DNA of 64,000 bases from sequence record PV857777.1; one strand, given 5' to 3'. This document shows positions 12,740 through 12,797 of the stretch, piece by piece. The translations under genes and the position numbers were made by a program. How positions within the stretch are numbered: the first letter of the stretch is position 1; the number at the start of each line of letters is the position of its first letter. The notes beneath the pieces were generated by a model. That model ran no database searches. It worked only from the letters and a program-made list of their open reading frames with translations, and was not told the DNA's origin. This DNA is from Escherichia phage Ec_O157kw.

Positions 12740-12769
12740 GTTTACAAGACTGTTCCTCTGTGGTACTAT
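12740..12769 (+). promoter_or_regulatory. T4 early-type promoter with flanking inverted repeat
   Basis: GTTTAC 12740-12745, TACTAT 12764-12769; inverted repeat CTGTTCCTC (12750-58) / GAGGAACAG (12786-94) whose right arm covers the SD of the next gene. Confidence 0.6.
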
Positions 12770-12797
12770 ACAACTATCAACTACGGAGGAACAGAAA

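Follow-up and report, generated by a model that had tools for sequence, protein, structure and literature searches.

The site considered here lies in the intergenic region between nrdC.9 and nrdC.8, within a 64,000-nt stretch of DNA that was analyzed over its full length and is referred to below as the window. The window represents an early region of a Tequatrovirus (T4-like) phage, with approximately 98% identity to Tequatrovirus genomes such as those of Shigella phage Sf25 and vB_SsoM_113, and its + strand corresponds in direction to early transcription in T4. The counterpart of the site in T4 is found directly 5' of nrdC.8, which there starts at 53,885; neither a promoter nor a stem-loop is annotated at this site in the T4 GenBank records NC_000866 and AF158101, and a literature search gave no usable genome-wide map of T4 start sites. 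The features discussed below are collected in table 1; the genes behind the early promoters were named through comparison with an annotated relative.

Table 1. Genes, promoters, and hairpins at the nrdC.8 site and elsewhere in the window (positions are those of the window; classes A and B are defined in the text).
Feature	Positions	Strand	Details
nrdC.9 CDS	12435-12737	+	Stop codon TAG 12735-12737, 12 nt 5' of the left arm
nrdC.8 CDS	12798-13325	+	ATG at 12798; 175 aa, no assigned function
nrdC.8 early (sigma-70 type) promoter	12740-12769	+	T4 early consensus; -35 GTTTAC 12740-12745, TGG 12761-12763, -10 TACTAT 12764-12769; predicted start ~12776
nrdC.8 hairpin, left (5') arm	12750-12764	+	CTGTTCCTCTGTGGT; fills most of the promoter spacer
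nrdC.8 hairpin, right (3') arm	12780-12794	+	ACTACGGAGGAACAG; includes SD GGAGGA 12785-12790
Predicted outer helix, 5' strand	12732-12739	+	TTTTAGTG; includes the nrdC.9 TAG
Predicted outer helix, 3' strand	12803-12810	+	CGCTAAAG; codons 2-5 of nrdC.8
nrdC.10 early promoter	11301-11330	+	Likely source of read-through RNA for nrdC.8
denV promoter hairpin, class A	450-507	+	TTTCTCC 456-462 x GGAGGGA 494-500 (SD); inner 466-473 x 482-489
regB promoter hairpin, class A	3535-3594	+	TTTTCCTCTTGACTGTGG 3541-3558 x CTATCAGTTAAGAGGAGAA 3569-3587 (SD); ATG 3592
modB promoter hairpin, class A	50124-50188	+	-10/discriminator 50143-50161 x SD plus AUG 50169-50188
166-aa MotB-like ORF promoter hairpin, class A	55315-55374	+	55322-55339 x 55348-55364; 17 bp; SD TGAGGA
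34-aa ORF promoter, class B	8543-8603	+	8550-8564 / 8571-8585 around the -10; SD 8590-8595 free
dmd promoter, class B	43061-43122	+	43068-43082 / 43089-43103 (previously listed as 43073-43098); SD free
motB promoter, class B	56417-56452	+	GGGACCA / TGGTCCT around TATAAT (previously listed as 56432-56451)
57019 promoter, class B	57019-57061	+	13-bp perfect arms around TACTAT; SD ~57078 free
Gene 49 late-promoter hairpin	19543-19582	+	AATAAATA; arms 19550-19559 / 19565-19574; ATG 19580

The nrdC.8 promoter is of the early sigma-70 type, with the form GTTTAC-N18-TACTAT and a TGn element. An inverted repeat overlaps it: CTGTTCCTCTGTGGT pairs with ACTACGGAGGAACAG over 15 bp, including two G-U pairs, and encloses a 15-nt loop within which the -10 TACTAT is found. 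A previous reading, made from the sequence only, had listed five inverted repeats, all of which were found where it had placed them; the one before nrdC.8, with the GGAGGA SD in its right arm, is real and at 15 bp longer than had been claimed. The same SD also holds the RegB motif GGAG. A 76-nt RNA segment covering the site has an MFE of -25.5 kcal/mol, compared with -9.9 +/- 2.5 kcal/mol for shuffled sequences (z = -6.2; none of 200 shuffles was as stable), and among all 60-nt segments of the + strand (mean -8.2, standard deviation 3.5) the nrdC.8 hairpin forms the seventh most stable cluster in the 64 kb. The MFE structures further contain a weak, predicted outer helix that joins the end of nrdC.9 to the first codons of nrdC.8 and brings the total to between -30 and -35 kcal/mol; here the UUUA of the -35 hexamer is predicted to pair with UGAA of the nrdC.8 start-codon region. 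No late promoter TATAAATA occurs within positions 12700-12797, and searches of the entire window with Rfam covariance models gave no matches at the gathering score.

It should be noted that the three most stable 60-nt structures of the window, at 20146-20205, 21880-21939, and 562-621 (-29.4, -29.3, and -26.9 kcal/mol), lie within coding sequence, namely early nrdD, the nrdD/nrdG junction, and denV, respectively. Another segment, 41287-41346, consists of a hairpin-forming short tandem repeat (ATTTAG/ATCTAG) followed by a G+C-rich hairpin with a UUCG loop; these may sit just 5' of uvsX, a gene that was not placed in window coordinates.

RNA that extends into nrdC.8 from upstream is expected: a terminator scan found no intrinsic terminator between the promoter at 11301 and position 12740, and the sole one nearby, at 11251-11270, precedes the nrdC.10 promoter. 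The program-made ORF list contains a 378-aa frame (11197-12333) that spans both this terminator and the nrdC.10 promoter; according to the annotation in relatives, the true start of nrdC.10 is the ATG at 11365.

The 5' arm of the nrdC.8 hairpin sits in the -35/-10 spacer, upstream of any usable start, and therefore the hairpin would form only in read-through RNA. To compare the two kinds of transcript, the local start was assumed to lie 7 nt past the -10 (~12776) and the mean predicted unpaired probability of the SD was used as the measure. For nrdC.8 this value is 0.00 in read-through RNA and 0.50-0.78 in RNA with the local start, and when the 18-nt spacer alone was shuffled the read-through value climbed, averaging 0.52-0.59 (P = 0.003-0.01). 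The sequence-only reading had held that the hairpin is confined to read-through RNA and buries the SD there, and had named the folding of read-through versus promoter-proximal RNA as a check; run in this way, the comparison bears the claim out computationally, with the SD closed in the former and open in the latter (0.00 vs. 0.5-0.8).

Gene 49 is an experimentally established case of such SD masking and served as a positive control. Its hairpin was found as previously described (19550-19574), and by the same measure its SD scored 0.01 in read-through and 0.65 in local RNA. For soc, taken as a second positive control, no SD masking was predicted (0.81 vs. 0.58). The window encodes a variant soc (MGGFVNIKTF..., ATG 47752) behind a TATAAATA late promoter at 47713, and the SD-sequestering hairpin known from T4 soc is not predicted for this variant in the region 47700-47760.

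To place the nrdC.8 site among its neighbors, all promoters of the form GTTTAC-N18-TAnnnT with an SD and an ATG downstream were collected, which gave 18 in the window. Structures of -17 kcal/mol or below are present at eight of these, with ~1.0 expected, and of -21 kcal/mol or below at five (0.17 expected); none of 5,000 random position sets matched either count, and promoter-embedded hairpins account for 7 of the 22 most stable 60-nt segments in the 64 kb. The previous reading's general claim of several early promoters with the -10 hexamer inside an inverted-repeat loop therefore holds true beyond chance. Masking of the SD by sequence preceding the start exceeds that of shuffles (P <= 0.05) in 6 of 17 promoter/gene pairs, with 0.85 expected (Fisher P = 0.002). 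Against SD masking as the explanation stand the short leaders of ~20 nt, in which a randomly placed 3' arm between the -10 and the ATG would often overlap the SD, and the pyrimidine-rich spacer starts (TTTCC, TTTCTCC) common in these promoters, which are anti-SD-like by composition.

We distinguish class A hairpins, in which the 3' arm holds the SD, from class B, in which the repeat surrounds the -10 and the SD is free. Class A comprises denV, regB, nrdC.8, modB, and the 166-aa MotB-like ORF; four of these, at regB (3535), modB (50124), the 166-aa ORF (55315), and denV (450), are stronger SD-containing cases that were absent from the previous list. The hairpins of denV (with versions in both Mosigvirus and Dhakavirus), the MotB-like ORF, and the 34-aa ORF are retained in Mosigvirus and/or Dhakavirus with differing arms: the phiC120 counterpart of the MotB-like ORF promoter has a 13-bp hairpin with other arms. 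A modB-type hairpin is also found in phiC120. At 43073, 56432, and 57019, the other early-promoter examples of the previous reading, the repeats are real and the SD is left untouched; SD accessibility was scored for dmd (promoter at 43061), where the predicted value is unchanged in read-through RNA, the motB SD being unplaceable and 57019 unscored. These three class B repeats need an explanation other than SD masking. The class B repeat of the 34-aa ORF (8550-8585) shows numerous compensatory changes in Mosigvirus phiC120, where it is retained, and on the strength of these it seems to be under selection. Since four class B repeats skip the SD and at least one of them is conserved with compensatory changes, SD masking is not the sole reason for repeats at these promoters.

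Two early promoters of phiC120 (reverse complement 7579-7637 and 45305-45362), preceding ORFs of 59 and 105 aa, have perfect anti-SD spacers, for example TTCTCCAGTAGTTG / CAACTACTGGAGAA with 14 bp. These additional anti-SD promoters suggest that the set of genes gated in this way varies among genera.

The nrdC.8 gene is present in three genera, Tequatrovirus, Dhakavirus, and Mosigvirus. Scans of IMG/VR gave eight loci for NrdC.8 and 11 for RegB, and the phage collection was of more use for the comparison. Across the Tequatroviruses, T4 included, the nrdC.8 hairpin is kept at 13-15 bp, and in one isolate five loop bases are altered while the arms are intact. The Dhakaviruses have an unrelated spacer, of which an earlier segment, AUCUCCAGUAG, pairs with CUACUGGAGGU in a different register and with a 23-nt loop, which once more buries the SD (P = 0.01-0.03, spacer shuffles). 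The Mosigvirus spacer, AGGUCUAU, instead has its partner AUAGACCU at the -10/discriminator, and pairing of the SD in this genus is weak and nonsignificant (P = 0.07-0.11). Thus the pairing is kept by differing sequences in two of the three lineages, with the Tequatroviruses and Dhakaviruses masking the SD and the Mosigviruses not, and these comparative data favor selection for pairing of the nrdC.8 SD.

The strongest comparative evidence comes from regB, where sequence comparison supports such selection better still than for nrdC.8. The hairpin has 18 bp in the window, and its arms read UUUUCCUCUUGACUG / CAGUUAAGAGGAGAA in Tequatrovirus, UUCUCCUCUAGUUG / CAACUAGAGGAGAA in Mosigvirus, and AUCUCCUGUAG / CUACAGGAGAU in Dhakavirus. 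Both sides are changed in 6 of 15 pairs among these three genera, a figure obtained by manual comparison of the arms, with the -35 hexamer and GGAG as anchors, and not from a formal covariation count, because the MAFFT alignment of the leaders shifted the SD by one base. Pairing between promoter and SD is kept in Tequatro-, Mosig-, Dhaka-, Gelderland-, Karam-, Jiaoda-, and Roskildevirus and others, altogether ~10 genera with differing arms and compensatory changes, and more distant regB loci that pair the promoter with the SD, or with SD and AUG, were found in STP4-a, CC31, JD18, Cronus, RZ, fHe-Yen9-01, Muldoon, and an IMG/VR contig. In Krischvirus E26, regB has no promoter at this place and no such structure. 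Although the arm sequences have turned over completely, the SD falls within the 3' arm in ~10 of 11 lineages, and in 8 of 11 lineages the predicted unpaired probability of the regB GGAG is at most 0.02 in read-through RNA, compared with 0.4-0.9 in local RNA.

Stem-loops at T4-type early promoters are known as PeSLs (promoter-early stem-loops), which were defined in RB49/phi1 (Arbiol et al. 2010; PMC2839356), later extended to T4/PST (Comeau et al. 2014; PMC4122927), and read as attenuators of upstream transcription (PMC2839356). The text of the 2010 study does not contain the word "translation" and does not discuss pairing of the stem with the SD (PMC2839356). As in PeSLs, the features described here form an intergenic cassette that combines an AT-rich tract and a strong early promoter with a stem-loop, an SD, and an ATG, and that is repeated in the genome and found before different genes in related phages. 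The nrdC.8 site shows this layout, being intergenic, with an AT-rich upstream tract and a sigma-70-like early promoter followed by SD and ATG, and the position of its stem-loop, between -35 and -10 and overlapping the -10, corresponds to a PeSL subclass; in RB49/phi1 the stem-loops are often between -35 and -10 or overlap the -10. However, PeSL stems consist of a short G-tract and C-tract and have been seen as terminators or attenuators and as recombination sites, and those of T4/PST are drawn 5' of the promoter, whereas the arms in the window are long (13-18 bp), gene-specific, and covary with their own SD region.

Copies of the nrdC.8 cassette occur at 37339, 11301, 7731, and 57034. The nrdC.8 promoter (12740-12783) shares 93% identity over 44 nt with that of an imm.1-like gene (37339-37382) and has its -10 and initial transcribed sequence in common with the promoters at 11301, 7731, and 57034. 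The cassettes of nrdC.10 (11285-11370) and the imm.1-like gene (37323-37408) agree further in the A/T tract on their upstream side, in the leader, and in the SD ATACGGATTTGGAGAATAAAATGAAAA, which is the published RegB target consensus GGAGAAUAAAA. Such near-identical cassettes before unrelated genes are consistent with mobile, PeSL-type cassettes. The sequence 5' of the nrdC.8 cassette has no conservation between genera. The motB cassette (56417-56452), with the repeat GTTTACAAACTCTTGGGACCAGAGTATAATGGTCCT, is identical in Dhakavirus IME08 (reverse complement 27393-27428), where it precedes an unrelated 109-aa ORF.

Inhibitory structures have been listed in T4 for e, soc, 49, and I-TevI, as well as for I-TevII, I-TevIII, mobE, and segB, and their relief by late promoters has been described for e and I-TevI (PMC3014915). 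The same source describes nothing of this kind for regB, stating only that it "must be tightly regulated" (PMC3014915), and a review of T4 transcription gives an extra early-promoter consensus without inverted repeats (PMC2988021). The literature searched, which did not extend to older print works, contains no account of SD masking in connection with an early promoter. The nrdC.8 hairpin resembles those of e, soc, 49, and I-TevI in having the SD in the 3' arm and the start 3' of the 5' arm, so that long RNA would be closed and promoter-proximal RNA open; at the level of sequence, and given the predicted start, the SD of nrdC.8 lies in a stable helix and the start lies 3' of the 5' arm. In contrast to these genes, the nrdC.8 promoter is an early sigma-70 and not a late gp55 promoter, translation would be immediate-early and not late, the 5' arm is placed in the -35/-10 spacer with the -10 in the loop, and masking at nrdC.8 is a prediction. 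The proposed mechanism is hence like that of the e/soc/49 hairpins, minus their defining late promoter, and it overlaps with the PeSL concept.

We propose that the two arms of the 15-bp RNA hairpin in the nrdC.8 cassette would be supplied by the promoter spacer (5' arm) and by the leader with its SD (3' arm). RNA begun at ~12776 would lack the 5' arm, leaving the SD open for translation in the first minutes of infection, while RNA arriving from 11301 or beyond would contain both arms and fold once the SD emerges, hiding the SD from 30S subunits and GGAG from RegB. NrdC.8 synthesis would in this way be tied to its own immediate-early promoter and would stop when early promoters are shut off, despite read-through ("delayed-early") RNA that would go on traversing the gene; the same design may operate at regB, denV, modB, and the MotB-like ORF. 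On this model nrdC.8 is probably translated only from RNA begun at its own promoter, and the previous interpretation is partly supported, by in silico folding and by comparison, the reservations being that the three other early-promoter repeats spare the SD, that the Mosigvirus nrdC.8 spacer pairs elsewhere, and that the PeSL attenuator reading competes with it. Taken as a whole, the explanation joins the observed structure with its statistical strength, its position relative to the promoter elements, and its conservation in different registers and with compensatory changes to a predicted start, an expected read-through RNA, and a putative effect on translation and its timing, and we lean towards it with modest confidence.

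The main competing explanation starts from the PeSL literature and takes the hairpin to be an attenuator that ends or weakens upstream transcription, so that the cassette drives its own gene and the overlap with the SD is incidental. A PeSL stem-loop did lower lacZ expression like a strong terminator (PMC2839356), the recurrence of the cassette in the window (37339, 11301, 7731, 57034) is PeSL-like, and conserved class B hairpins that leave the SD untouched exist. However, the reporter assay used the G-tract/C-tract stem-loop of another phage, all nine promoter hairpins lack a U-tract after the stem, and a pure attenuator would not need the regB SD in its 3' arm, where ~10 of 11 lineages have it. 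The nrdC.8 hairpin is G+C-rich and intergenic, like an intrinsic terminator, but its stem lacks a following U-tract and its loop has 15 nt; with the tail AAAAUGAACG and a negative result in the scan that does detect 11251-11270, we reject an intrinsic terminator here. As a whole, the attenuator explanation with incidental SD overlap seems unlikely to us. Attenuation is itself compatible with SD masking, because read-through RNA on which nrdC.8 is not translated would be prone to Rho-dependent polarity, and the two readings can be reconciled if untranslated read-through RNA does undergo such polarity.

A further possibility is that the hairpin shields GGAG from RegB in long transcripts, so that polycistronic RNA carrying the downstream nrdC.7, nrdC.6, and beyond would outlast the inactivation of early mRNAs. 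RegB cuts GGAG in early SDs and thereby inactivates early mRNAs, while GGAG inside stable structures is resistant, and the T4 nrdC.8 GGAG is "moderately cleaved" in vivo (Durand et al. 2006; PMC1702504), a level of cutting that on our own proposal fits a mix of open and closed SDs; the SD of regB itself, a RegB target (PMC3014915), is the best-conserved masking case. RegB inactivation and the hairpin have in common the SDs and the immediate-early class of genes concerned, and either would end early synthesis after the first minutes, but RegB is a trans-acting nuclease, whereas a hairpin of the nrdC.8 type is a cis structure that would block ribosomes and protect GGAG. Poor RegB sites are masked as well, such as TGAGGA at 55359 and GGAGG with C-containing tails in place of GGAGAAUAAAA, and a shield leaves unexplained why the 5' arm must precede the start site; protection would be a consequence of the same structure and not a separate mechanism, and as the reason for the hairpin we find it quite improbable. 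Lastly, the repeat could act in duplex DNA, as a cruciform exposing the -10 or as a protein site, or be a by-product of the promoter consensus and cassette recombination, as might be suggested by the -10 lying in or beside the loop in every case, by the unusual strength of the promoters, and by spacers that are partly common to the copies. In all nine promoter hairpins the sense RNA is more stable than the antisense, with a mean of -20.3 as against -12.5 kcal/mol, owing to the use of 26 G-U pairs overall. This argues for selection on the sense transcript and not on a cruciform, but the argument is weakened by a background bias in the same direction: the sense strand is G-rich, and its RNA is the more stable by 1.5 kcal/mol genome-wide, a margin that reaches 3.6 kcal/mol among other strong structures. 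In a cruciform, the 26 G-U pairs would be G-T and A-C mismatches, the antisense versions are on average 8 kcal/mol weaker, and loops of 8-23 nt are unfavorable for extrusion; the arms are wholly different among promoters, and being gene-specific they offer no common operator or protein-binding site. The cruciform or operator reading was judged unlikely on the G-U pairs and gene-specific arms, the strand asymmetry being partly background, and with chance ruled out by the shuffle and random-position controls, and simple inheritance by the compensatory changes, action in DNA or origin as a by-product has very little probability.

SD masking by the promoter spacer, if it holds at nrdC.8, may extend further. 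Across the Tevenvirinae, the spacer could serve as an anti-SD for RegB, the ModB ADP-ribosyltransferase cassette, DenV, NrdC.8, and the MotB-like protein, licensing translation only on transcripts from the gene's own promoter, with read-through (delayed-early or middle) forms closed, RegB-resistant, and probably Rho-polar; we regard this generalization as tentative, possible but short of probable. Mutations in the left arm within the spacer are predicted to prolong RegB and NrdC.8 synthesis, and for phage engineering, moving or deleting an early promoter may silence the downstream gene even though it is still transcribed.

If this generalization is true, these promoters would constitute a general, cis-encoded "promoter-of-origin" gate, and part of the PeSL stem-loops, earlier seen only as attenuators and recombination sites, would be reinterpreted and gain a translational function. 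The synthesis of many T4 early proteins falls sharply at ~3 min post infection, and the shut-off of early promoters is described as unexplained or not fully understood (PMC2988021, PMC3014915). With the SD shut by a hairpin on any RNA not begun at the gene's own promoter, such a design would turn promoter shut-off directly into protein shut-off, which would matter most for regB, whose tight control is noted in reviews, and for modB, where we infer a similar need, and it would help to explain the abrupt stop in the synthesis of some early proteins, the cause of which is still described as unknown.
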